Shown: positions 2,899-19,177 of the stretch, one piece after another | Numbering within the stretch: the first letter of the stretch is position 1 | Layout: every line of letters begins with the position of its first letter | IMG/VR virus record: IMGVR_UViG_638341196_000003 | Length of the DNA: 19,177 nt | From: a virus | Lineage: Duplodnaviria > Heunggongvirae > Uroviricota > Caudoviricetes | Reading direction: 5' to 3' (one strand) | The notes under the pieces: model-generated | What the model was told of the DNA's origin: nothing | The model's database searches: none | The model's input: the letters and a program-made list of their open reading frames with translations, nothing else | Position numbers and translations under genes: made by a program

Positions 2899-3582
2899 AT
2901 GACTGAATGGCTTAATGCACATTTTGGTGCAGACGCAGCTACCTATCTTAGCTTATTAGTCGGCGTACTGGCACTGTTTGGTATTGGGGGCGGTGTTACA
3001 TATAGAATCAGACAGCAAAACAACATAAAACAGAAGGCAAAGAAAACCGAGGGTGATGTGAACCAGGCCGGGCGGGATATTAATCAGACCACCAACGTTT
3101 ACCACACATCCAATGAATCTACTGAGGACCCTGTAAAAAAAAAGCAAGATGAACATGATCTGAAGATAATCGACCAGATCCTTGAATTGCTGCCTTATGA
3201 GGATACTACTCAATGGGTTGAGCAGAGCTACCTGAGCGGTATACGGCAAGATGTTTGCTTAAACATTGAAAAAGCTGAAAAATTTAGCGGTGAAAAGTAT
3301 CGGTTATTCAATACTGAAGTGAATGGTGCGAAAGACGCTTTTTTGGACGCTATGACCGCATACGTAGATAGTACGCTACCATTTATGAGTGTTGATTACC
3401 CGAACAGAAAGCCAGTGATGCTAAGCCTTCCCCATGACTGGAAGAGTAAGAGTGTTGAATCGGAGGCAAACTTCCGCTTTCATCAGCAAAATGTGCGTGA
3501 AACATCGGGGGGGATGATTGCGCGCTATGAGGATTTTGTCAGGACATTTAAGGCTCATGGATTCATAAGCGATAAACTGTAA
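2899..3582 (+). CDS. Hypothetical membrane-anchored protein (227 aa): one N-terminal transmembrane helix, charged linker, soluble C-terminal domain; non-phage cargo
   Basis: Intact ORF with ATG start; hydrophobic segment YLSLLVGVLALFGIGGGV at residues ~16-33, then a Lys/Glu-rich linker. Own promoter-like region upstream and an intrinsic terminator downstream (rebuilt across the IS10-like insertion). No family recognised. Confidence 0.5.
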   Translation: MTEWLNAHFGADAATYLSLLVGVLALFGIGGGVTYRIRQQNNIKQKAKKTEGDVNQAGRDINQTTNVYHTSNESTEDPVKKKQDEHDLKIIDQILELLPYEDTTQWVEQSYLSGIRQDVCLNIEKAEKFSGEKYRLFNTEVNGAKDAFLDAMTAYVDSTLPFMSVDYPNRKPVMLSLPHDWKSKSVESEANFRFHQQNVRETSGGMIARYEDFVRTFKAHGFISDKL

Positions 3583-3675
3583 AGGCGCAGTGGGTCAGCG
3601 AACACCGCAACGACAGAACCGCGTAAGCGGTAAAATCAGCTTGTTAACTGGCGAGTTTATAGCCGTCCCTCCGGG

Positions 3676-4976
3676 CTGAGGGATCCCCACAAAATTACTG
3701 CTAATAAACCAGCACCATATTTCGGTAGGTTCTGGACAGATGGTTTAGAACTGTGCTCAGTACTGTTCGTCTTAAAATAAGTGGCGAGTGTCGAAGAACA
3801 TTCTTCGCTAACGTCAGATATGAGATAACCCGCCGGGATTTAATGCTGTTAGCCTGATATTTCAGGTGTAACCCTTTATTTTCAGCGTGATAACCGAGTA
3901 ACCACATTACGATAGTGCTCAACGTTGCCAGCAGACTCAGAACCAGAATTCTTCCTGTTGAACGACTTTTGCTGGCCCGAAGACCAAATCCGAAGCGCCC
4001 GTTCTTTTCATCACGAAAGTTTTGCTCTATCTGCATTCGCCGACTGTATAACTTGATGATTTCTCGCGCTCTGAAGTCATTTGTACTGCTGAAGATCAAC
4101 CAGGCTTCTTTTGCTGATTTGCTCTGTTCTTTGTCTGTTTTGTTTAAACCACTCTGACCTTTCGAACGTTTCTTTTTTCGCCCTTTTGCCGATTTCTTAT
4201 AGGTGTAAAAATGCCCCCGGATGCTTTTTTTCCTTTCTTTAACCAGCCTTCCAGCCTCCATATATTCCGGTGTTTTACATTCAGGGCTATCCGACACTTT
4301 TAACCATCTTTCAGGCGCGTTATCGAGGCAATACTGAACGTTATTTCTGATCCGACCAATAAAATCCCAGCCCAGAGAAGTAATATGGTGAAACCATGCG
4401 CTCTGAAATCCAGCATCCGTGACAATAATAACCCTGGCATCGGGGGGCAGGGATTGAGCAAGGGAATCAAGGAAATCATGTTGTATCAATGGATTATTTT
4501 GTTTTTCAGAAGGAACAACCTTACTCAATAACGGAATGGAACGCCCGTCACACAGAAGGCTGGCACGAAGAACATGATGCTCCTGGGAGGGATAGCCACT
4601 CCAGTCTACGGCTATTACACATAAAGATAACTGCCGTGTCAGCATTGAAGTGATATTCCTGAAAATCATTGGAATATCGCGATGGAGCGCCTCATTACCC
4701 ATGAGGCGATCAATACGTTTGCTCTTATTCTTAACTTGTGCATTACCCGGGAAAAAACGTCCGATACTGGTCAGCGTCAGAGATGCTCCGTTGATTAACG
4801 CCACTGTGGCATCCATCAGGGCATTTTGTCGGTACTGATGAAATGGTGCTAAGGCATCCCGGAAGAAATTCTGACATACTTTATGAACAGGCATAGCAGT
4901 GATCTCATTGAATTGTTGGCACAAATCAGTAGATCACATAATGCTATGTCTGTCTCGTTTTCTGGGAATTCCTCAG
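3676..4976 (-). mobile_element. IS4-family, IS10-like insertion sequence (1301 bp)
   Basis: Imperfect terminal inverted repeats CTGAGGGATCCCCACAAAATT (left) and CTGAGGAATTCCCAGAAAACG (right, reverse complement), 17 of 23 matching, resembling the IS10 end CTGATGAATCCCC. Perfect 9-bp duplication CCCTCCGGG at 3667-3675 and 4977-4985. Confidence 0.7.
3701..4924 (-). CDS. IS4-family (IS10 group-like) DDE transposase, 407 aa
   Basis: Shares landmarks with IS10 transposase as recalled (KRIDRLxGN, VDWS, RAS...GRS, DAGF, IYSxRMQIEQxFRD); stop 25 bp from the left inverted repeat. Confidence 0.85.
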   Translation of the reverse strand: MCQQFNEITAMPVHKVCQNFFRDALAPFHQYRQNALMDATVALINGASLTLTSIGRFFPGNAQVKNKSKRIDRLMGNEALHRDIPMIFRNITSMLTRQLSLCVIAVDWSGYPSQEHHVLRASLLCDGRSIPLLSKVVPSEKQNNPLIQHDFLDSLAQSLPPDARVIIVTDAGFQSAWFHHITSLGWDFIGRIRNNVQYCLDNAPERWLKVSDSPECKTPEYMEAGRLVKERKKSIRGHFYTYKKSAKGRKKKRSKGQSGLNKTDKEQSKSAKEAWLIFSSTNDFRAREIIKLYSRRMQIEQNFRDEKNGRFGFGLRASKSRSTGRILVLSLLATLSTIVMWLLGYHAENKGLHLKYQANSIKSRRVISYLTLAKNVLRHSPLILRRTVLSTVLNHLSRTYRNMVLVY

Positions 4977-5061
4977 CCCTCCGGGGCGGCTTTTTTATGA
5001 CTATAATCGACAGAATCACCTGAACGTCCAGGTGGGTTTCCCTGACAGGACGTCAAGGAAT

Positions 5062-5246: not shown

Positions 5247-6032
5247 ATGTACGATTATAGTTTTTTACTTACTCCATCTACAGGATTTGTTAAAGGATTA
5301 TGTGGAGTTTGGTCGAATGATTTCTCTATAAATGATGATTCTGACTCTGATTTAGGGCAAACAGATATTCATTTACTTTCATCTCCTCATTTGAATATCA
5401 TATCCGACCCAAATGAATTGGCTTCCAAGTTAAAAGGTTTGTTGATGCTCATGAACGGCGCACTTAGCGTTCTTTATGGTTTTGAAAGATATCAATCTTT
5501 TGGTCCTCTTTCTATTTCTGGAAGTGAAGGCATTAATTACTCGGAAATATGCGGCTTTAAATCAATGGATGTAACTCAGGTAAACCCCTTTAATTTCCAT
5601 GACATACAGCAACCACACCCTCGCGCTGATAATTTTTCACGATTAATTAATTTATCATCTAAACATGAATCCTTACGTGTTGTTTTAGGTATGTGTGCCT
5701 TAGGTTATGATTGGGTTAATCTTTATCGTTTGTGGGAAACAATTAGAGAATATGTATATGATAAATATGTGAAAGGTATACTAAATTTCCCCGACGCTTA
5801 TAAAGGCAAGAAATATCAGAGAGATAAAGTAATTAGCATGGCTTTTAATATTGATGAAAAGGAAATCAGCAGATTCACGGGCACTGCTAATAGCTTTGAA
5901 CTGTTAGGGTATCTTGCGAGACATGGAAAGGGAAGTTCCGGAGGGATATTAAAAAATCCGATGTCAAGAGTTGACGCAAGCATTTTCGTACACAAAGCAA
6001 CTTACAAATATTGTAAGTTATTTTTGATGTAA
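5247..6032 (+). CDS. Hypothetical protein (261 aa), AT-rich non-phage cargo gene
   Basis: Intact ORF with ATG and an upstream AGAGGGA ribosome-binding site; the gene and its upstream region are visibly AT-rich compared with the flanking tail genes. No transmembrane segment or recognisable motif. Confidence 0.5.
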   Translation: MYDYSFLLTPSTGFVKGLCGVWSNDFSINDDSDSDLGQTDIHLLSSPHLNIISDPNELASKLKGLLMLMNGALSVLYGFERYQSFGPLSISGSEGINYSEICGFKSMDVTQVNPFNFHDIQQPHPRADNFSRLINLSSKHESLRVVLGMCALGYDWVNLYRLWETIREYVYDKYVKGILNFPDAYKGKKYQRDKVISMAFNIDEKEISRFTGTANSFELLGYLARHGKGSSGGILKNPMSRVDASIFVHKATYKYCKLFLM

Positions 6033-6372: not shown

Positions 6373-6380
6373 TGAAGTGG

Positions 6381-8509
<2,129 letters not shown>

Positions 8510-8510
8510 G

Positions 8511-8772
8511 TAGCCTTTTTTAATATTTCATTCTCCATTTCAATGCGTTGTAGCTTTTTCCTCAGCTTACGTATTTCGATTTGTTCTGGTGTTATCGGAG
8601 AGGCTTTTGGTGTTTTGCCCTGACGCTCATCACGCAGTTGTTTGACCCATCTTGTCATTGTGGAAAGGCCAACATCCATAGCTTTGGCGGCATCTGCCAC
8701 CGTGTATTTCTGGTCAACAACCAGTTGAGCGGATTCGCGTTTAAACTCTGCGCTAAAATTTCTTTTTTTCAT
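8511..8772 (-). pseudogene. IS911-like orfA, 5' portion (codons 1-88) cut by IS30; the last 12 codons and stop resume at 7288-7247
   Basis: [56 protein letters not shown]...EILKKAT, then IS30; downstream of IS30 the frame reads [12 protein letters not shown]-stop. Confidence 0.8.
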
Positions 8773-8844
8773 TGGAGCACCTGTGTTGTTCTGAGGCGAG
8801 CATATCACCTCTGTTCAGGTGGCCAAATTCAGTGTGCCACTTCA

Positions 8845-9492: not shown

Positions 9493-10645
9493 AATAGCTG
9501 CGCTTAATACCGCTACACTTTTGCCAGTCCATGTTTGCCTCCGGGGAATGGGCTGACGGTTTCCATAAAATGGCGAACTTTTTTCAACAGTTGCCACATT
9601 GAGCGGCACTGATGATTACGCGTTATTGTGTCGTGAAGTGCCTGCCATAGCCGTTCAACATGATTCACCCATGGCGAGTAAACCGGCTGATAAATGACCC
9701 TGAACTTCGGGTTCTCCTTCAGCCAGCTCTGTGTTTCCCGGCTTTTGTGGATAATGTAGTTGTCCACGATCAGCGTGATGGTTTTCGCCCGACGGTATGT
9801 CGCTTTAAGCCGCTTCAGCAGGCTGATGAACAGCGCCGAACTTTTGCTGTTGCCGCCCACATAGCTGACTTTACCTGTCCCGCTGTGCAGCGCTCCGGCC
9901 AGATAATATTTTTCATTCTGTCCCGGCGTGACCACCCGTTTTTGCTGTCCGCGCAGTTGCCAGTCCGCACCGATTTTGGGATGAAGATGGATATCCACTT
10001 CATCTTCATAAAAGACCGGATGCTCTGCGCTGCATTCGTCCAGTGCTTTATGGATTGCTGCCATCTTTTCATCTTTATGCGGGTCACGGATACGCAGAGT
10101 TGGCGCAGCCCTTCGCCACACAATCCCCGCAGACGGCAACCAGCGGCGAACGGTTCCGGCATTTAACTGGCAACCGGTTATCTCATTGATTTTTATTGCC
10201 AGCAGTTCTGTACTCCAGCGTGAACGCTGGTAGACAAAGTCGCCGGGAGAATGTTTTACCAGCTCACGTAACAGTGTGCAGATATGCTCAAACGGCCAGC
10301 GACGGGCACGCCCGGCAGGTAATGATTTCAGTCCCTCAACACCCGACTGCGTGAACCAGTTAATCCAGCGTCCAACAGAGGAACGGGCGCAGCAGAGCGT
10401 TCTGGCAACGTCGCTGACACGGTCGCCCCGGTGCAGCATCAGCATGGCAGTCAGTCTGCGGGCATAATTTTTATCGTGTGTTTTATGGATGGCTTTCTGC
10501 ATCAGGCGTCGTTCGTCACGGGAAATTGGTGCTATGATCGGCATTGCTCAGTCCGGTTGGTGATTTGTTTTGATTTGGCGATTGATCAGATCGCACAATC
10601 CGGGCTAAGTTCCCTCAAAATGATCTACTATTCCGCGCAGCTATT
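9493..10645 (-). mobile_element. IS630 insertion sequence, complete (1153 bp)
   Basis: 343-aa transposase; imperfect terminal inverted repeats (AATAGCTGCGC...); flanking TA duplication at 9491-9492 and 10646-10647; reconstructed target GATCCTAGGTCTG contains CTAG. Confidence 0.9.
9513..10544 (-). CDS. IS630 (Tc1/mariner superfamily) transposase
   Basis: 343-aa product MPIIAPISRDERRLMQKAIHKTHDKNYARRL... matches IS630 transposase from recall. Confidence 0.9.
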   Translation of the reverse strand: MPIIAPISRDERRLMQKAIHKTHDKNYARRLTAMLMLHRGDRVSDVARTLCCARSSVGRWINWFTQSGVEGLKSLPAGRARRWPFEHICTLLRELVKHSPGDFVYQRSRWSTELLAIKINEITGCQLNAGTVRRWLPSAGIVWRRAAPTLRIRDPHKDEKMAAIHKALDECSAEHPVFYEDEVDIHLHPKIGADWQLRGQQKRVVTPGQNEKYYLAGALHSGTGKVSYVGGNSKSSALFISLLKRLKATYRRAKTITLIVDNYIIHKSRETQSWLKENPKFRVIYQPVYSPWVNHVERLWQALHDTITRNHQCRSMWQLLKKVRHFMETVSPFPGGKHGLAKV

Positions 10646-10849: not shown

Positions 10850-10941
10850 GTTGTTTCATCCCCTGACCAGCCAGGTCAAATAGCGTCTCATGCTCTGCAC
10901 AACAGAAAATAGTTGCACCCATTAACCACGGAGTTAAACGG

Positions 10942-12132
10942 ATGAGTGACTATCATCACGGCGTGCAGGTGCTGGAGATTAACGACGGCACCCGCGTCAT
11001 TTCCACCGTATCCACGGCCATTGTCGGCATGGTCTGCACGGCCAGCGATGCAGATGCGGAAACCTTCCCCCTCAATAAACCGGTGCTGATTACCAATGTG
11101 CAGAGCGCAATTGCAAAGGCCGGTAAAAAAGGCACGCTGGCGGCGTCGTTACAGGCCATCGCTGACCAGTCAAAACCGGTCACCGTTGTTGTGCGCGTGG
11201 AAGACGGCACCGGCGACGACGAAGAAACGAAGCTCGCGCAGACCGTTTCCAATATCATCGGCACCACCGACGAAAACGGTCAGTACACCGGACTGAAAGC
11301 CCTGCTGGCGGCGGAGTCGGTAACCGGTGTTAAACCGCGCATTCTCGGTGTGCCGGGACTGGATACCAAAGAGGTGGCTGTTGCACTGGCATCAGTCTGT
11401 CAGAAGCTGCGCGCTTTCGGGTATATCAGCGCATGGGGCTGTAAAACCATTTCCGAGGTGAAAGCCTACCGCCAGAATTTCAGCCAGCGTGAGCTGATGG
11501 TCATCTGGCCGGATTTCCTCGCATGGGATACGGTCACCAGTACCACCTCCACCGCGTATGCCACCGCCCGTGCGCTGGGGCTGCGCGCTAAAATCGACCA
11601 GGAGCAGGGCTGGCATAAAACGCTGTCCAACGTCGGGGTGAACGGTGTTACCGGCATCAGCGCGTCCGTATTCTGGGATTTGCAGGAGTCCGGCACCGAT
11701 GCTGACCTGCTTAACGAGTCAGGCGTCACAACGCTGATTCGCCGTGACGGTTTCCGCTTCTGGGGTAACCGTACCTGCTCTGATGACCCGCTGTTCCTCT
11801 TTGAAAACTACACCCGCACCGCGCAGGTGCTGGCCGACACGATGGCTGAGGCGCACATGTGGGCGGTGGACAAGCCCATCACCGCAACGCTGATTCGCGA
11901 CATCGTTGACGGCATCAATGCCAAATTCCGTGAGCTGAAAACAAACGGCTATATCGTGGATGCGACCTGCTGGTTCAGCGAAGAATCCAACGATGCGGAA
12001 ACCCTCAAGGCCGGAAAACTGTATATCGACTACGACTATACACCGGTGCCTCCTCTCGAAAACCTGACCCTGCGCCAGCGTATTACCGATAAATACCAGG
12101 CAAATCTGGTCACCTCGGTTAACAGCAATTAA
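10942..12132 (+). CDS. FI: Contractile tail sheath protein (P2 gpFI-like)
   Basis: 396-aa ORF, same length as P2 FI; position and order match the P2 FI-FII-E-T-U-D cluster. Confidence 0.9.
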   Translation: MSDYHHGVQVLEINDGTRVISTVSTAIVGMVCTASDADAETFPLNKPVLITNVQSAIAKAGKKGTLAASLQAIADQSKPVTVVVRVEDGTGDDEETKLAQTVSNIIGTTDENGQYTGLKALLAAESVTGVKPRILGVPGLDTKEVAVALASVCQKLRAFGYISAWGCKTISEVKAYRQNFSQRELMVIWPDFLAWDTVTSTTSTAYATARALGLRAKIDQEQGWHKTLSNVGVNGVTGISASVFWDLQESGTDADLLNESGVTTLIRRDGFRFWGNRTCSDDPLFLFENYTRTAQVLADTMAEAHMWAVDKPITATLIRDIVDGINAKFRELKTNGYIVDATCWFSEESNDAETLKAGKLYIDYDYTPVPPLENLTLRQRITDKYQANLVTSVNSN

Positions 12133-12144
12133 GGAGCCTGACCG

Positions 12145-12662
12145 ATGGCAATGCCGCGCAAACTCAAGTTAATGAACGTCTTTCTGAACGGCTACAGCTA
12201 TCAGGGCGTTGCAAAGTCCGTCACGCTGCCAAAACTGACCCGTAAACTCGAAAACTATCGCGGTGCGGGGATGAACGGAAGCGCACCGGTAGACCTCGGC
12301 CTTGATGACGATGCGCTGTCAATGGAGTGGTCGCTCGGGGCTTCCCGGATTCGGTTATCTGGGAGCTCTACGCCGCAACCGGCGTGGATGCCGTACCGAT
12401 TCGTTTTGCTGGCTCTTACCAGCGCGACGATACCGGCGAAACGGTGGCCGTCGAGGTGGTCATGCGTGGCCGTCAGAAAGAAATCGACACCGGCGAGGGG
12501 AAACAGGGAGAAGACACCGAGTCGAAAATCTCCGTGGTCTGCACCTATTTCCGGCTGACGATGGACGGTAAGGAGCTGGTCGAAATCGACACCATCAACA
12601 TGATTGAGAAGGTGAACGGTGTCGACCGGCTGGAGCAACACCGCCGCAATATCGGCCTGTGA
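12145..12662 (+). pseudogene. FII: Tail tube protein (P2 gpFII-like), frame disrupted near 12337-12340
   Basis: N-terminal 62 codons in frame 1 (…LSMEWSLG), remainder in the overlapping frame (GFPDSVIWELYAAT…) of listed ORFs 12145-12558 and 12327-12662. The break sits in a G4 run where one more G would restore a ~172-aa protein. Confidence 0.6.
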
Positions 12663-12718
12663 TTTTCATCCGGTCAGCCAGGCTGACCGGTTAACCCTGA
12701 TTCAGAAGTGAGAAAACC

Positions 12719-12994
12719 ATGAACAAAGAAAATGTGATTACCCTGGACAATCCGGTCAAGCGTGGTGAGCAGGTTATCGAACAGGTCACGCTGATGAAAC
12801 CCAATGCCGGGACGCTGCGCGGTGTCAGTCTGGCTGCGGTCGCAAACTCCGAAGTCGATGCACTGATTAAGGTGCTGCCGCGCATGACGGCACCGATGCT
12901 GACCGAGCAGGAAGTCGCCGCGCTGGAACTGCCTGACCTTGTGGCGCTGGCCGGTAAGGTGGTCGGTTTTTTGTCGCCGAACTCGGTGCAGTAA
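12719..12994 (+). CDS. E: Tail assembly chaperone (P2 gpE-like)
   Basis: 91-aa ORF between the tube and tape measure genes; contains the slippery run GGTTTTTTG near its 3' end. Confidence 0.75.
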   Translation: MNKENVITLDNPVKRGEQVIEQVTLMKPNAGTLRGVSLAAVANSEVDALIKVLPRMTAPMLTEQEVAALELPDLVALAGKVVGFLSPNSVQ

Positions 12995-13146
12995 CGTTCC
13001 CGAAAAATCTGTCGGTCGATGAGCTGATGGCGGATGTGGCAGTGATATTTCACTGGCCGCCATCAGAACTGTATCCCATGAGTCTGACCGAACTCATCAC
13101 ATGGCGCGAAAAGGCGCTCCGGCGAAGCGGAAACACGAATGAGTAA
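12719..13146 (+). CDS. Tail assembly chaperone frameshift product (P2 gpE+E'-like) made by programmed -1 frameshift
   Basis: From the T6G run at 12967-12973 the -1 frame stays open to a stop at 13144-13146 (…FFVAELGAVTFPKNLSVDELMADVAVIFHWPPSELYPMSLTELITWREKALRRSGNTNE), overlapping the tape measure start. Confidence 0.55.
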
Positions 13147-15586
13147 CAATGTAAAATTACAGGTATTGCTCAGGGCTGTTGACCAGGCATCCCGCCCGTT
13201 TAAATCCATCCGCACAGCGAGCAAGTCGCTGTCGGGGGATATCCGGGAAACACAAAAATCACTGCGCGAGCTGAACGGTCACGCATCCCGTATTGAGGGA
13301 TTTCGCAAGACCAGTGCACAGCTCGCCGTGACTGGTCATGCACTTGAAAAGGCACGGCAGGAGGCCGAAGCCCTTGCCACACAGTTTAAAAACACCGAAC
13401 GTCCCACCCGTGCTCAGGCGAAAGTGCTGGAATCCGCAAAGCGTGCGGCGGAGGACTTACAGGCGAAATATAACCGCCTGACGGATTCCGTTAAACGCCA
13501 GCAGCGGGAACTGGCCGCTGTGGGAATTAATACCCGCAATCTTGCACATGATGAGCAGGGACTGAAAAACCGTATCAGTGAAACCACCGCACAACTTAAC
13601 CGTCAGCGCGACGCGCTGGCGCGTGTCAGTGCGCAACAGGCAAAACTTAACGCAGTAAAACAGCGTTATCAGGCCGGAAAGGAACTGGCCGGAAATATGG
13701 CCTCAGTAGGCGCTGCCGGTGTGGGGATTGCGGCGGCGGGAACGATGGCCGGAGTTAAGTTGCTGATGCCCGGTTATGAGTTTGCGCAGAAAAACTCAGA
13801 ATTGCAGGCCGTGCTAGGAGTGGCAAAAGACTCCGCCGAAATGGCCGCGCTACGCAAGCAGGCGCGCCAGCTCGGTGACAATACCGCCGCCTCAGCGGAT
13901 GATGCGGCCGGTGCGCAGATTATCATTGCGAAAGCGGGTGGAGATGTTGATGCCATTCAGGCGGCAACGCCGGTCACGCTGAATATGGCGCTGGCGAACC
14001 GCCGCACGATGGAAGAAAACGCCGCCCTGCTGATGGGGATGAAATCCGCCTTTCAGCTTTCAAACGATAAGGTTGCTCATATCGGGGATGTTCTCTCCAT
14101 GACGATGAACAAAACCGCCGCCGATTTTGACGGCATGAGCGATGCGCTGACCTATGCCGCACCTGTGGCAAAAAATGCCGGTGTCAGCATTGAAGAAACC
14201 GCCGCAATGGTCGGGGCACTGCATGATGCAAAAATTACCGGTTCAATGGCGGGGACGGGAAGCCGTGCCGTGTTAAGCCGCCTGCAGGCACCGACGGGAA
14301 AAGCATGGGATGCACTGAAAGAGCTTGGTGTGAAAACCTCAGACAGCAAGGGAAACACCCGGCCAGTATTTACCATTCTGAAAGAAATGCAGGCCAGTTT
14401 TGATAAAAACCGGCTCGGTACTGCCCAGCAGGCTGAATACATGAAAACCATTTTCGGGGAGGAGGCCAGCTCAGCCGCTGCTGTGCTGATGACTGCCGCC
14501 TCAACCGGAAGGCTGGACAAACTGACCGCTGCGTTTAAAGCCTCAGACGGGAAGACCGCGGAGCTGGTAAATATCATGCAGGACAACCTCGGCGGTGACT
14601 TTAAGGAGTTTCAGTCCGCTTATGAGGCGGTAGGGACTGACCTGTTTGACCAGCAGGAAGGCGCGCTGCGTAAGCTCACGCAGACGGCCACAAAGTATGT
14701 GTTAAAACTCGACGGCTGGATACAGAAAAACAAATCACTGGCGTCAACTATCGGCCTCATTGCCGGTGGCGCACTGGTGCTGACTGGCATCATCGGTGCC
14801 ATTGGTCTTGTAGCCTGGCCGGTTATCACCGGCATCAATGCCATTATCGCGGCAGCAGGCGCAATGGGGGCAATCTTCACGACGGTTGGCAGTGCTGTTA
14901 TGACGGCCATCGGGGCGATTAGCTGGCCGGTTGTGGCCGTGGTGGCCGCCATTGTCGCCGGGGCGTTGCTTATCCGTAAATACTGGGAGCCTGTCAGCGT
15001 ATTCTTCGGCGGTGTGGTTGAAGGGCTGAAAGCGGCATTTGCGCCGGTGGGGGAACTGTTCACGCCACTTAAGCCGGTGTTTGACTGGCTGGGTGAAAAG
15101 TTACAGGCCGCGTGGCAGTGGTTTAAAAACCTGATTGCACCGGTCAAAGCCACCCAGGACACCCTGAACCGTTGCCGTGACACGGGCGTCATGTTCGGGC
15201 AGGCACTGGCTGACGCGCTGATGCTGCCGCTTAATGCGTTCAACAAACTGCGCAGCGGTATTGACTGGGTACTGGAAAAACTCGGCGTCATCAACAAAGA
15301 GTCAGACACACTTGACCAGACCGCCGCCAGAACTCATGCCGCCACGTATGGCACCGGTGGTTATATTCCGGCGACCAGCTCTTATGCAGGCTATCAGGCT
15401 TATCAGCCGGTCACGGCACCGGCTGGCCGCTCTTATGTGGACCAGAGTAAAAACGAATATCACATCAGCCTGACCGGTGGTACTGCGCCGGGGACACAGC
15501 TTGACCGCCAGTTACAGGATGCGCTCGAAAAATACGAGCGGGATAAACGAGCGCGCGCCCGTGCCAGCATGATGCATGACGGTTAA
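13139..15586 (+). CDS. T: Tail tape measure protein (P2 gpT-like)
   Basis: 815-aa ORF, Ala/Gly-rich with predicted coiled-coil and hydrophobic segments; same length and position as P2 T. Confidence 0.9.
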   Translation: MSNNVKLQVLLRAVDQASRPFKSIRTASKSLSGDIRETQKSLRELNGHASRIEGFRKTSAQLAVTGHALEKARQEAEALATQFKNTERPTRAQAKVLESAKRAAEDLQAKYNRLTDSVKRQQRELAAVGINTRNLAHDEQGLKNRISETTAQLNRQRDALARVSAQQAKLNAVKQRYQAGKELAGNMASVGAAGVGIAAAGTMAGVKLLMPGYEFAQKNSELQAVLGVAKDSAEMAALRKQARQLGDNTAASADDAAGAQIIIAKAGGDVDAIQAATPVTLNMALANRRTMEENAALLMGMKSAFQLSNDKVAHIGDVLSMTMNKTAADFDGMSDALTYAAPVAKNAGVSIEETAAMVGALHDAKITGSMAGTGSRAVLSRLQAPTGKAWDALKELGVKTSDSKGNTRPVFTILKEMQASFDKNRLGTAQQAEYMKTIFGEEASSAAAVLMTAASTGRLDKLTAAFKASDGKTAELVNIMQDNLGGDFKEFQSAYEAVGTDLFDQQEGALRKLTQTATKYVLKLDGWIQKNKSLASTIGLIAGGALVLTGIIGAIGLVAWPVITGINAIIAAAGAMGAIFTTVGSAVMTAIGAISWPVVAVVAAIVAGALLIRKYWEPVSVFFGGVVEGLKAAFAPVGELFTPLKPVFDWLGEKLQAAWQWFKNLIAPVKATQDTLNRCRDTGVMFGQALADALMLPLNAFNKLRSGIDWVLEKLGVINKESDTLDQTAARTHAATYGTGGYIPATSSYAGYQAYQPVTAPAGRSYVDQSKNEYHISLTGGTAPGTQLDRQLQDALEKYERDKRARARASMMHDG

Positions 15587-15600
15587 GGAGGTGACGAAAA

Positions 15601-16080
15601 ATGATGCTCGCGTTAGGTATGTTTGTTTTTATGCGCCAGACGCTGCCACATCAGACCATGCAGCGTGAATCAGATTATCGCTGGCCGTCAAATTCCCGTA
15701 TCGGTAAACGGGATGCCTATCAGTTTCTCGGTGTAGGTGAGGAGAACATCACACTTGCCGGTGTGCTTTATCCCGAACTGACTGGCGGAAAGCTGACGAT
15801 GACCACGCTCAGACTGATGGCAGAGGAAGGCCGGGCGTGGCCGTTGCTGGATGGCACCGGCATGATTTACGACATGTATGTCATCAGCAAGGTGAGTGAA
15901 ACAGGGAGTATTTTCTTTGCAGACGGCACACCCCGGAAAATTGATTTTACGCTGTCGCTCACCCGCGTTGATGAGTCACTGGCCGCGCTTTATGGCGATA
16001 TCGGTAAACAGGCGGAATCGCTCATCGGTAAGGCTGGCAGTATGGCGACTAAATTCACGGGTATGACGGGGGCGGGATAA
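15601..16080 (+). CDS. U: Tail protein (P2 gpU-like)
   Basis: 159-aa ORF after T; stop overlaps the next start (TAATG) as in P2 U-D. Confidence 0.8.
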   Translation: MMLALGMFVFMRQTLPHQTMQRESDYRWPSNSRIGKRDAYQFLGVGEENITLAGVLYPELTGGKLTMTTLRLMAEEGRAWPLLDGTGMIYDMYVISKVSETGSIFFADGTPRKIDFTLSLTRVDESLAALYGDIGKQAESLIGKAGSMATKFTGMTGAG

Positions 16081-17243
16081 TGCTGGATGCGCTGACATTT
16101 GATGCAGGCAGTACGCTGACGCCGGATTACATGCTGATGCTCGACAGCAGGGATATTACCGGCAATATCAGCGACCGTCTGATGAGCATGACCCTGACGG
16201 ATAACCGGGGCTTTGAGGCTGACCAGCTTGATATTGAACTGAACGATGCCGACGGGCAGGTCGGGCTGCCGGTTCGTGGCGCTGTCCTGACGGTGTATAT
16301 CGGCTGGAAAGGTTTTGCCCTGGTATGCAAAGGGAAATTTACCGTTGATGAGGTTGAACACCGGGGCGCACCGGATGTGGTCACCATCCGCGCCCGGAGT
16401 GCAGATTTTCGCGGGACGCTCAATTCCCGCCGGGAAGGCTCATGGCATGACACCACGCTCGGTGCGATTGTTGAGGCGATAGCCTCCCGGAACAGGCTGG
16501 AAGCCAGTGTCGCTCCGTCACTGGCCGGAATTAAAATTCCGCACATCGACCAGTCGCAGGAGTCTGATGCGAAATTCCTGACCCGCCTTGCTGAACGCAA
16601 CGGCGGTGAGGTGTCGGTAAAAATGGGAAAACTGCTGTTTCTCAAAGCGGGGCAGGGGGTGACGGCCAGCGGTAAAAAAATCCCGCAGATTACCATCACC
16701 CGCAGCGACGGCGACCGTCATCATTTTGCGATTGCTGACCGTGGAGCCTACACCGGCGTAATGGCAAAGTGGTTACACACCAAAGACCCGAAGCCACAAA
16801 AGCAGAAGATAAAACTGAAACGCAAAAAGAAAGAGAAACACCTGCGCGCACCGGAGCACCCGAAAGCGAAACCGGTCAGGCAGAAGAAAGCGCCTAAAGT
16901 ACCGGAAGCGCGCGAAGGTGAATACATGGCCGGTGAGGCTGATAACGTTTTTGCCCTGACTACGGTATATGCCACAAAAGCGCAGGCCATGCGCGCCGCT
17001 CAGGCGAAGTGGGATAAGCTGCAACGGGGCGTGGCGGAGTTCTCCATCAGTCTGGCTACTGGTCGGGCAGATATTTACACGGAAACGCCGGTCAAAGTGT
17101 CAGGTTTTAAGCGCGTCATAGACGAGCAGGACTGGACAATCACTAAGGTGACACACTTTCTGAATAATAGCGGCTTCACGACGTCCTTAGAGCTTGAGGT
17201 CAGGCTTTCTGATGTGGAGTACGAAACAGAAGGTGATGAGTAA
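16080..17243 (+). CDS. D: Tail protein D (P2 gpD-like)
   Basis: 387-aa ORF with a Lys-rich internal segment (KPQKQKIKLKRKKKEK), same length and position as P2 D. Confidence 0.85.
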   Translation: MLDALTFDAGSTLTPDYMLMLDSRDITGNISDRLMSMTLTDNRGFEADQLDIELNDADGQVGLPVRGAVLTVYIGWKGFALVCKGKFTVDEVEHRGAPDVVTIRARSADFRGTLNSRREGSWHDTTLGAIVEAIASRNRLEASVAPSLAGIKIPHIDQSQESDAKFLTRLAERNGGEVSVKMGKLLFLKAGQGVTASGKKIPQITITRSDGDRHHFAIADRGAYTGVMAKWLHTKDPKPQKQKIKLKRKKKEKHLRAPEHPKAKPVRQKKAPKVPEAREGEYMAGEADNVFALTTVYATKAQAMRAAQAKWDKLQRGVAEFSISLATGRADIYTETPVKVSGFKRVIDEQDWTITKVTHFLNNSGFTTSLELEVRLSDVEYETEGDE

Positions 17244-17324
17244 TGTTTTGTTTTTATCTGTTTGTTTTATAAGGGTAAATTAACTAAAATGGCACCATCA
17301 ACAAAACCGGAAGAGGTGCTCGCG

Positions 17325-17543
17325 ATGTTTCATTGTCCTTTATGCCAGCATGCCGCACATGCGCGTACAAGCCGCTATATCACTGACACGACAAAAGAGC
17401 GTTATCACCAGTGTCAGAACGTGAATTGCAGTGCCACGTTCATCACTTATGAGTCGGTACAGCGATACATCGTGAAGCCGGGAGAAGTCCACGCCGTAAG
17501 GCCGCACCCGTTGCCATCAGGGCAGCAAATTATGTGGATGTAA
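17325..17543 (+). CDS. ogr: Late-gene transcription activator Ogr (zinc-finger protein)
   Basis: 72-aa product MFHCPLCQHAAHARTSRYITDTTKERYHQCQNVNCSATF... with the Cys4 motif; begins at the third Met of listed ORF 17262-17543. Confidence 0.85.
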   Translation: MFHCPLCQHAAHARTSRYITDTTKERYHQCQNVNCSATFITYESVQRYIVKPGEVHAVRPHPLPSGQQIMWM

Positions 17544-17556
17544 TTACAAACAGAAA

Positions 17557-17582
17557 GCCCCTCAGTCGAGGGGCTTTTTTGT
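17557..17582 (+). terminator. Intrinsic terminator after ogr (GCCCCTC-AGTC-GAGGGGC followed by TTTTTTGT)
   Basis: Perfect 7-bp GC-rich stem, 4-nt loop, T6 tract 14 nt after the ogr stop. Confidence 0.6.
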
Positions 17583-17644
17583 CGATGTGGTCAATGTGTG
17601 GACGTGACCAGAAATAAATCCTTTTATTTCAATTTATTGTACGT

Positions 17645-17671
17645 AAAAAATAAGCCCGTGTAAGGGAGATT
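17645..17671. other. Probable prophage right attachment-site core (AAAAAATAAGCCCGTGTAAGGGAGATT) overlapping the cyaR 3' end
   Basis: The 27-nt string matches the P2 att core as I recall it and sits between the ogr terminator and the body of cyaR; recollection only, not verified. Confidence 0.45.
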
Positions 17672-17731
17672 ACACAGGCTAAGGAGGTGGTTCCTGGTAC
17701 AGCTAGCATTTTATGGGTTATGTTTTTCAGC
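17645..17731 (-). ncRNA. cyaR: CyaR (RyeE) Hfq-dependent small RNA
   Basis: Reverse complement reads GCUGAAAAACAUAACCCAUAAAAUGCUAGCUGUACCAGGAACCACCUCCUUAGCCUGUGUAAUCUCCCUUACACGGGCUUAUUUUUU, an 87-nt RNA with terminator hairpin and U-tract; lies between ogr and yegQ as in E. coli K-12. Confidence 0.85.
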
Positions 17732-17738
17732 GAAACGG

Positions 17739-17781
17739 ATGATAACCTTAATAAATGCAACTGTATGTGATCGGTTTCTAA
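17739..17781 (-). promoter_or_regulatory. cyaR promoter: -10 hexamer TATCAT (17739-17744) and a class II CRP half-site pair TGTGA-N6-TCTAA (17766-17781)
   Basis: -10 lies 8-13 nt upstream of the inferred 5' end at 17731; CRP-like site is centred about 42 nt upstream, consistent with known CRP dependence of cyaR. Confidence 0.5.
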
Positions 17782-17815
17782 GAATTTTCCATCCGGGAAA
17801 AATAATCGAAATTAA

Positions 17816-19177
17816 TCACTTACCGTGGGGGTTACGCGTGGTTTCCCCGGAGAAATTACGCATTAGCAGCGCGTAATTTAGCTCAAGATCCTGCGGGACC
17901 GGGAGCCACACAGTATAACCATCGCCTGGTGCGACCGGCATAGCTTCGCCTTTGGCGTTTTCCATGTGCTCAAGGGTAAAGTTAATGTTGCCTTGCGGCG
18001 TCATCAGCTCAAGACTGTCGCCAACGGAGAATTTATTTTTCACCGCTACCGCTGCGAGGTCCCCCTTGCGCTCACCGGTAAACTCACCAACAAACTGCTG
18101 GCGGTCAGAAACTGAATAACCGTATTCGTAGTTCTGATAATCGTCGTGAGTATGACGACGCAGGAAACCTTCGGTATAGCCACGATGCGCCAGACCTTCC
18201 AGAGTTTCCAGCAGGCTGGTATCGAACGGTTTTCCCGCAGCGGCGTCATCGATAGCTTTGCGGTAAACCTGTGCGGTGCGTGCGCAATAGTAGAAAGATT
18301 TGGTACGACCTTCGATTTTCAGCGAATGCACGCCCATTTTGGTCAGGCGTTCTACATGGGCGATGGCGCGCAGATCTTTCGAGTTCATGATGTAAGTGCC
18401 GTGCTCATCTTCAAACGCGGTCATATACTCGCCCGGACGCTGGGCCTCTTCGATCATAAACACTTTGTCGGTTGGCGCGCCGATACCCAGCGTCGGCTCA
18501 ACATTTTGCACCGGAATCGGCTCGTACTTGTGTACGATGTTGCCAACGTCATCTTCTTTCCCTTCCTGGACGTTGTACTCCCAGCGGCAGGCGTTGGTGC
18601 AGGTACCCTGGTTCGGATCGCGCTTGTTGATATAGCCAGAGAGCAGGCAGCGACCGGAGTAGGCCATGCACAGTGCGCCGTGAACGAAGATCTCGATCTC
18701 CATATCCGGCACCTGATTGCGGATCTCTTCAATCTCTTCAAGCGACAGCTCGCGAGAGAGGATCACGCGGGTCAGGCCCATTTGCTGCCAGAATTTCACC
18801 GTCGCCCAGTTTACGGCGTTAGCCTGCACCGAGAGGTGGATCGGCATTTCAGGGAAGTGCTCACGCACCAGCATAATCAGCCCTGGATCGGACATAATCA
18901 GCGCATCCGGCCCCATTTCCACCACCGGTTTCAGGTCACGGATAAAGGTTTTCAGCTTGGCGTTGTGCGGTGCAATGTTGACCACGACATAAAACTTTTT
19001 CCCCAGCGCGTGGGCTTCATTGATGCCGAGCTGAAGATTTTCGTGGTTGAATTCGTTGTTGCGCACACGTAGGGAGTAACGCGGCTGGCCCGCATAAACA
19101 GCATCTGCGCCATAAGCGAAAGCGTAACGCATATTTTTCAGCGTTCCCGCCGGGGAAAGGAGTTCCGGTTTAAACAT
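17816..19177 (-). CDS. yegQ: Peptidase U32-family protein YegQ (TrhP, tRNA hydroxylation)
   Basis: 453-aa ORF MFKPELLSPAGTLKNMRYAFAYGADAVYAGQPRYSLRVRNNEF... with conserved Cys residues; start codon at the window edge (19175-19177). Confidence 0.9.
   Translation of the reverse strand: MFKPELLSPAGTLKNMRYAFAYGADAVYAGQPRYSLRVRNNEFNHENLQLGINEAHALGKKFYVVVNIAPHNAKLKTFIRDLKPVVEMGPDALIMSDPGLIMLVREHFPEMPIHLSVQANAVNWATVKFWQQMGLTRVILSRELSLEEIEEIRNQVPDMEIEIFVHGALCMAYSGRCLLSGYINKRDPNQGTCTNACRWEYNVQEGKEDDVGNIVHKYEPIPVQNVEPTLGIGAPTDKVFMIEEAQRPGEYMTAFEDEHGTYIMNSKDLRAIAHVERLTKMGVHSLKIEGRTKSFYYCARTAQVYRKAIDDAAAGKPFDTSLLETLEGLAHRGYTEGFLRRHTHDDYQNYEYGYSVSDRQQFVGEFTGERKGDLAAVAVKNKFSVGDSLELMTPQGNINFTLEHMENAKGEAMPVAPGDGYTVWLPVPQDLELNYALLMRNFSGETTRNPHGK

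Follow-up and report, generated by a model that had tools for sequence, protein, structure and literature searches.

The record IMGVR_UViG_638341196_000003 (virus, Caudoviricetes) is a stretch of 19,177 nucleotides, called the window below. At positions 3676-4976 it contains an insertion sequence (IS) that was identified as one intact copy of ISSfl1, a member of the IS10 subgroup of the IS4 family, inserted at the apex of a terminator-like hairpin with a 9-bp target duplication. The probability of this reading was estimated at about 0.96. Judged by sequence identity, ISSfl1 is an already named and catalogued insertion sequence, an IS10 relative of the Shigella virulence plasmids. The element and its ends are arranged as follows:

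3676-4976, - strand (that of the transposase): ISSfl1 insertion sequence, 1301 bp, delimited by full-length megablast matches and by the empty site
3667-3675: left copy of the target-site duplication, CCCTCCGGG, which occurs once in the empty site
4977-4985: right copy of the target-site duplication, CCCTCCGGG, likewise single in the empty site
3676-3694: terminal inverted repeat of the transposase-distal ('inside'-type) end, CTGAGGGATCCCCACAAAA, with a GATC Dam site at 3682-3685
4958-4976: terminal inverted repeat of the transposase-proximal ('outside'-type) end, CTGAGGAATTCCCAGAAAA reading inward from 4976, with a private G>A at 4967
3701-4894, - strand: transposase gene, 397 aa and stop codon, from Pfam, NCBIfam, and the RefSeq coding sequence (CDS) boundaries

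A megablast search with the 1301 bp showed that bases 1-1301 are covered at 99.5-99.8% identity in 66 plasmids, nearly all of which are Shigella virulence plasmids, including pWR501 and pCP301. Among the complete E. coli genomes, a full-length match was found in one of 5,426. Alignment over 1301/1301 bases gave 99.5% identity with the reference copy of pWR501 and 99.8% with that of an S. boydii plasmid; in both, the CDS is annotated as 'IS4-like element ISSfl1 family transposase'. The RefSeq CDS of ISSfl1 comprises 1194 nt and encodes 397 aa, and its ATG corresponds to window position 4894. ISSfl1 has also been named in genome papers, as 'IS4 family (ISSfl1-like)' in Citrobacter rodentium and as a locus on the pEAF plasmids of enteropathogenic E. 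coli (EPEC). The window copy and the ISSfl1 of pWR100/pWR501 and pCP301 share the 1301-bp length, the ends, and the 397-aa transposase, at 99.5-99.8% nucleotide identity. The window copy differs from the plasmid copies in three private nucleotides; two of these change an amino acid, and the third falls in the right inverted repeat. Its site differs too, as it lies in a predicted terminator of a chromosomal island, whereas the pWR501/pCP301 copy lies inside IS100.

The element boundaries were examined by reconstruction of the empty site. The element and one 9-mer (3676-4985) were deleted, and the joined 1400-bp flanks were searched. The reconstructed site matched 15 complete E. coli chromosomes over 1400/1400 bases, in one ungapped piece, at 99.8-99.9%. 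The junction was inspected per base in E. coli L002; it reads ...TTTATAGCCGTCCCTCCGGGGCGGCTTTTTTATG... and contains only one CCCTCCGGG. Because the empty site holds CCCTCCGGG once, this 9-mer is host target sequence that was duplicated at insertion, and the ends lie where they were inferred. The chance probability of an exact 9-mer at two fixed positions is ~4e-6. The inverted repeats of 3676-4976 agree at 16/19 positions in this copy and at 17/19 in other copies; the difference is due to the private G>A at 4967. The window contains one copy of ISSfl1. The first-pass annotation, made from the window alone, had described a 1301-bp element at 3676-4976 with imperfect inverted termini beginning CTGAGG, flanked by a 9-bp duplication at 3667-3675 and 4977-4985; the E. 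coli empty site upholds both ends and the duplication, and both termini begin as described.

The target was a terminator-like hairpin, of which the two parts now lie on either side of the element:

2899-3582, + strand: gene for a 227-aa protein (open reading frame, ORF; RefSeq hypothetical protein), whose predicted terminator is split
3661-3675, + strand: 5' half of the terminator-like hairpin, with the arm AGCCGTCCC, the loop TCC, and the first GGG of the 3' arm, from the empty-site scan
4986-4996, + strand: remainder of the terminator, with the rest of the 3' arm (GCGGC) and the T-run, which now lie 1310 bp away from the 5' arm

A pattern scan of the empty site identified AGCCGTCCCTCCGGGGCGGCT followed by TTTTTAT, which corresponds to AGCCGTCCC-TCC-GGGGCGGCT with a stem of 9 pairs, 7 of which are G-C, and a 3-nt loop. 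The empty-site hairpin folds at -17.5 kcal/mol and is located 79 nt past the stop codon of the 227-aa gene. It shows the pattern of an intrinsic terminator, a GC-rich stem-loop directly before a T-run and downstream of a gene on the same strand. The duplicated 9-mer consists of the loop together with the 3 bases on each side of it, which close the 5' arm and open the 3' arm. Between 3550 and 5260 of the occupied window, the pattern scan detected no terminator-like site left on the + strand, and neither ISSfl1 junction folds better than shuffled sequence. Since the empty-site hairpin is absent from the occupied window and the junctions fold no better than shuffles, insertion into a terminator is supported at the level of prediction. 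The earlier claim that the element lies in the terminator of the 227-aa gene holds at that level, as the hairpin is intact in the E. coli empty sites and split here. The element would thus have inserted at the tip of a GC-rich intrinsic-terminator hairpin that follows the 227-aa gene, cutting this terminator in two.

The maximal ORF on the - strand (3701-4924) encodes 407 aa from a TTG at 4924, and this was the transposase length first annotated. This ORF exists; the protein itself, however, is likely the 397-aa product that starts from the ATG at 4894, which is the RefSeq start and the point where the alignment with the IS10A transposase begins. The transposase matches the Pfam domain DDE_Tnp_1 (E 3e-18). 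With the NCBIfam model NF033591 (cut-off 152), the ISSfl1 transposase scores 357 bits and the IS10A transposase 407 bits; both fail the other IS4 model, NF033592. The two proteins share 34.8% identity over 368 aa (E 4.5e-71) and are collinear from the first methionine. The catalytic residues are intact, including D97 (VDWS), D160 (TDAGF), and the Y283-R286-E290-K297 signature, present as YSRRMQIEQNFRDEK. A single-ORF DDE transposase with a Y-(2)-R-(3)-E-(6)-K signature is characteristic of the IS4 family (PMC2266710); the ORF of ISSfl1 is single and uninterrupted, has no frameshift, and carries this signature. The IS10 subgroup is defined by a length of 1200-1350 bp, CT ends, the YREK signature, and 9-bp direct repeats (PMC2266710 Table 1), and all of these were found in the element (1301 bp, 5'-CT (CTGAGG) ends, YREK, and a 9-bp repeat). 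By its identity to the IS10A protein and the two NCBIfam models, the transposase groups with that of IS10 and not with those of the other IS4 subgroups. A PDB sequence search with the transposase returned chance histone matches only and did not pick up the Tn5 transposase. The description of the element as IS10-like is borne out by the subgroup features, NF033591, the 34.8% identity to the IS10A transposase, and the termini; that it is clearly not IS10 itself also stands, as its amino-acid identity to both IS10A and ISVsa5 is only ~35%. If it works like that of IS10 and Tn10, the transposase would bind the CTGAGG(G/A)ATCCCC termini and excise the element by cut-and-paste. Insertion would occur at staggered cuts 9 bp apart in the target, as the relationship to IS10 suggests, and their repair would have given the CCCTCCGGG duplication.

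ISSfl1 resembles IS10 (IS10R/ISVsa5, IS10A) in several respects. The sizes are similar (1301 bp versus 1328-1329 bp), and both elements have a single DDE/YREK transposase that passes NF033591 and a 9-bp duplication. In the 13-bp termini (CTGA-G-ATCCCC), ISSfl1 is identical to IS10A and ISVsa5 at 12/13 positions at each end. The start CTGATG, which had been quoted for IS10, is that of the outside end of the IS10R-type ISVsa5. GATC is confined to the transposase-distal end in both elements (CTGAGGGATCCCC versus CTGAGGAATCCCC in ISSfl1; CTGAGAGATCCCC versus CTGATGAATCCCC in the IS10R-type ISVsa5); the inside ends of IS10A and ISVsa5 carry GATC, as does that of ISSfl1. In IS10, as in ISSfl1, the ATG is covered by an antisense hairpin of ~70 nt, and a GATC is found ~14 nt outward of the hairpin apex. 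The two elements differ in the transposase, which is only 34.8% identical, and in the Rfam RNA-OUT model, which has no match in ISSfl1. The targets also differ, since that of ISSfl1 is apparently CCC-N3/4-GGG whereas that of IS10 is NGCTNAGCN, and some ISSfl1 duplications are 10 bp long. The IS10 target was reportedly described as NGCTNAGCN by Halling and Kleckner in 1982.

Independent ISSfl1 insertions were gathered from plasmids, one E. coli chromosome, and a metagenome scan, giving 8 independent sites. The duplications are as follows:

This window: CCCTCCGGG, 9 bp
S. boydii plasmid: AGTACGGGG, 9 bp
Inside IS100 of pWR501/pCP301: CCCTTCAGG, 9 bp
Inside puuE of E. coli FDAARGOS_943 (L001, 3001-4301): CCCGCGCGGG, 10 bp
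Metagenome contig L013 (417-1717): CCCGCGAGGG, 10 bp

The 10-bp duplication in puuE was verified with an empty site that is 100.0% identical over 356 nt. At both 10-bp sites (puuE and L013), the spacing from CCC to GGG is 4 and not 3. The duplication of L013 is located at the apex of an 8-bp hairpin, GCCGCCCC-GCGA-GGGGCGGC. The left flanks of three truncated ISSfl1 copies end in GGG. When the half-sites adjoining the termini are read outward, CCC occurs in 11/13, against a background of ~1.1% (binomial P ~3e-20). Small as the sample is, these sites suggest that ISSfl1 likely prefers CCC-N3-GGG with a 9-bp duplication or CCC-N4-GGG with a 10-bp duplication. The target rule is likely symmetric like the NGCTNAGCN of IS10, with different bases. 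Such a preference would explain the insertions at the apexes of GC-rich hairpins, where these motifs are common, and the site choice in the window was probably not accidental. A truncated ISSfl1 in the metagenome contig L020 (3135-4174; element positions 1-1039 at 97.2%, like the EPEC pEAF copies H2-H5) is also preceded by CCCTCCGGG, and its sequence farther upstream is unrelated. The same 9-mer in unrelated surroundings is consistent with a strong target preference. A Salmonella relative (L042), which carries a frameshift and a decayed duplication, gave no information on the duplication length.

A second structural feature lies over the transposase start:

4883-4958, + strand: 76-nt hairpin antisense to the 5' end of the transposase gene, with the start codon (4892-4894) in its stem and GATC at 4932-4935 and 4901-4904

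This hairpin occupies IS positions 19-94, with the ATG at 83-85. The + strand hairpin folds at -34.8 kcal/mol (z -6.7), and the sense strand at -28.6 kcal/mol (z -5.7). It was aligned in 8 related sequences, consisting of relatives with 55-71% identical transposases and DNA relatives. In this alignment, 94.9% of the cells are paired, compared with 27-47% in slid registers. Compensatory double changes were found at three hairpin pairs (7 cells), a level reached by 4/500 shuffles. G.U pairs number 24 on the antisense (+) strand versus 4, and six of the eight sequences fold better on the antisense strand. IS10A, ISSfl1, and the unrelated-looking 1340-bp environmental relative described below share a common layout, in which the antisense hairpin has the ATG close to its 5' foot and a GATC 13.5-15.5 nt outward of its apex. 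IS10A served as a positive control; its RNA-OUT (Rfam RF00240, gathering threshold 41 bits) was recovered at 85.9 bits, at IS positions 46-114 with the ATG at 107. Weak Rfam matches of the miRNA and snoRNA type were dismissed as generic hairpin matches. The hairpin at 4883-4958 is a candidate for an RNA-OUT-like antisense RNA, for a fold-back element, or for both. Regulation might resemble that of IS10, with a Dam GATC in the transposase-distal end only and a second GATC ~14 nt outward of the antisense-hairpin apex. By this analogy, RNA-OUT-like antisense control may operate, possibly with fold-back inhibition and Dam sensing.

Several observations weigh against the proposed reading or parts of it. 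The name ISSfl1 rests on RefSeq/PGAP annotation and the literature, and the naming is inconsistent between records: in the pCP301 record AF386526.1 (L040, 1526-2749), the ORF of this element is labelled 'ISSfl3 ORF', with a 407-aa TTG start, where RefSeq/PGAP has 'ISSfl1'. The earlier suggestion was that the element may be an IS10-group member that is poorly catalogued. That it is such a member, or a new one, separate from every named element, is very improbable; this would agree with a transposase only ~35% identical to those of IS10A and ISVsa5, and so clearly not IS10, but it is refuted by the full-length 99.5-99.8% identity to the RefSeq-named ISSfl1 in pWR501, pCP301, and dozens of other Shigella plasmids, and by the several papers that use this name. 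The flanking 9-mers might in principle belong to the element, or the true ends might lie elsewhere with no real target duplication; the first-pass annotation had itself named 9-mers belonging to the element as grounds for refutation. This is hardly credible. The empty site carries exactly one CCCTCCGGG, and its match refutes a reading with no duplication; four other full ISSfl1 copies have different flanking repeats, and the base adjoining the right end is C or A. It is true that the pEAF-like copy in L020 is also preceded by CCCTCCGGG, and that the base adjoining the left end is G in 8/8 independent copies. The recurrent G and the CCC...GGG pattern are, however, better accounted for by target preference than by element sequence. 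The target consensus itself comes from only 8 independent sites, and both the activity of the terminator and its loss by the insertion are predicted. Compared with the consensus of six full copies, the window copy has three base differences, at 4257 (G213E), 4751 (L48F), and 4967 (position 10 of the right inverted repeat). With two private amino-acid changes and one inverted-repeat change, this copy may not be fully active. It is nevertheless unlikely that the copy is a fixed, immobile relic unable to transpose. The three private changes, with the G>A falling inside the conserved terminal 13 bp, and the many truncated or frame-shifted plasmid relatives would fit a relic, but the ORF is unbroken, D97, D160, E290, and YREK are intact, the duplication is perfect, and only 3/1301 bases are off the consensus. 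The perfect duplication and the 3/1301 differences imply a recent insertion. The exact window transposase protein was found in one NCBI assembly contig (GCA_000211935.2), where it adjoins the same 261-aa gene as in the window.

For the hairpin, the counter-evidence is of a similar kind. RNA-OUT had no match in the window (E<=10) or in ISSfl1 and its relatives (E<=1), the sigma-70 scan near the right end gave no candidate for a transposase or an antisense promoter, and the hairpin alignment is limited to 8 related sequences. Because it is below the RF00240 threshold, the ISSfl1 hairpin is an RNA-OUT analogue in position and shape, and not a demonstrated member of the family. The hairpin at 4883-4958 might act instead in the transposase mRNA, as a fold-back that sequesters the start codon in read-through transcripts, or as a DNA or protein-binding feature, and not as an antisense RNA. 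This alternative is somewhat doubtful, though it has a real share of the probability. It is favoured by the stable fold of the sense strand (-28.6 kcal/mol, z -5.7), which would suit mRNA fold-back, and by the undetected antisense promoter and the missing Rfam match; the G.U bias of 24 to 4 and the folds of six of the eight sequences favour the antisense strand, and the size of the hairpin and its place relative to the ATG and GATC match the bona fide RNA-OUT of IS10A. The antisense and fold-back roles are not mutually exclusive; IS10 is said, after Davis, Simons and Kleckner in 1985, to use fold-back inhibition as well. Taken as a whole, a broader proposal has about an even chance of being right. 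It holds that an RNA-OUT-type antisense hairpin, with a Dam site at a constant spacing from the apex, has been retained over the start of the transposase in ISSfl1 and, probably, throughout the IS10 subgroup, in elements that go unrecognised by the RNA-OUT family of Rfam; and that ISSfl1 selects CCC-N3/4-GGG mini-palindromes, with a 9- or 10-bp duplication set by the half-site spacing and a bias to GC-rich hairpin apexes.

An unnamed 1340-bp element of the IS10 subgroup was also observed in many copies, on metagenome contigs Ga03162xx and in a 'Thioalkalispiraceae' metagenome-assembled genome (MAG) (L005, L014-L019, L021-L028, L030-L038). Its terminal 19 bp are nearly identical to those of ISSfl1, CTGAGG(G/T)ATCCCCACAAAA. 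Its 398-aa transposase passes NF033591, and it has an antisense hairpin over the ATG (examples are L005, L014, L019, L027, L028, and L033). Unlike these features, the transposase is only ~34% identical to that of ISSfl1, and there is no detectable DNA similarity past the termini. A scan of genome contigs with the ISSfl1 left end identified one MAG contig only, which belongs to this 1340-bp relative and not to ISSfl1. No clean duplications were found around the copies of the 1340-bp element. Its flanks are nGTCWGAsn on one side and GGrCAGAsn on the other, alike but never as identical pairs, and for this reason they were dropped as a target consensus. These flanks may belong to the element itself, may be a strongly preferred target that recombination has scrambled, or may have another explanation.

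The surroundings in the window contain further insertion sequences. IS2 (1331 bp) is located at 1493-2823, with a 5-bp duplication, CCTGC, at 1488-1492 and 2824-2828. It lies in the 3' arm of a terminator-like hairpin, AAAGGCAGGGGGGTTACCTCCCCTGCCTTT, followed by a T-run; the hairpin is intact in E. coli L002 at 5828-5857. The earlier remark that the element had, like IS2, landed in a terminator hairpin agrees with this, as the window IS2 also splits a terminator-like hairpin. Two blocks are extra in comparison with the E. coli CFSAN061762 locus. The block 6373-8844 contains an IS3-family orfB (6381-7220) and an IS30-family transposase (7296-8447); the block 9493-10645 contains an IS630-family transposase (9513-10544). 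Five IS insertions in ~10 kb are typical of Shigella-type IS expansion. The region 10851-19177 contains P2-like tail genes (sheath, tube, tape measure, and late control D) adjoining trhP (yegQ); this tail module has 97% matches in many Enterobacteriaceae plasmids and chromosomes. The two proteins flanking ISSfl1, of 227 aa (2899-3582) and 261 aa (5247-6032), gave no Pfam, NCBIfam, or PADLOC match. In E. coli L002, their genes are located in an island, beside an Ag43-type autotransporter, a GTPase-family gene, a DUF932 gene, an integrase fragment, and a dynamin-family gene.

In summary, the analysis gives a known mobile element its correct label, ISSfl1, with a 397-aa transposase and a 9-bp duplication. 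The element is already known and its site is of a predictable kind; beyond routine annotation, only the target rule and the RNA-OUT-like hairpin are of note. The insertion destroyed the predicted terminator of the 227-aa gene, in an island that was also invaded by IS2, an IS3-family element, IS30, and IS630. If true, the CCC-N3/4-GGG rule would help to predict ISSfl1 sites and would explain the insertions in terminators. The conserved antisense hairpin suggests that the Rfam RNA-OUT family could be extended to the relatives of IS10.

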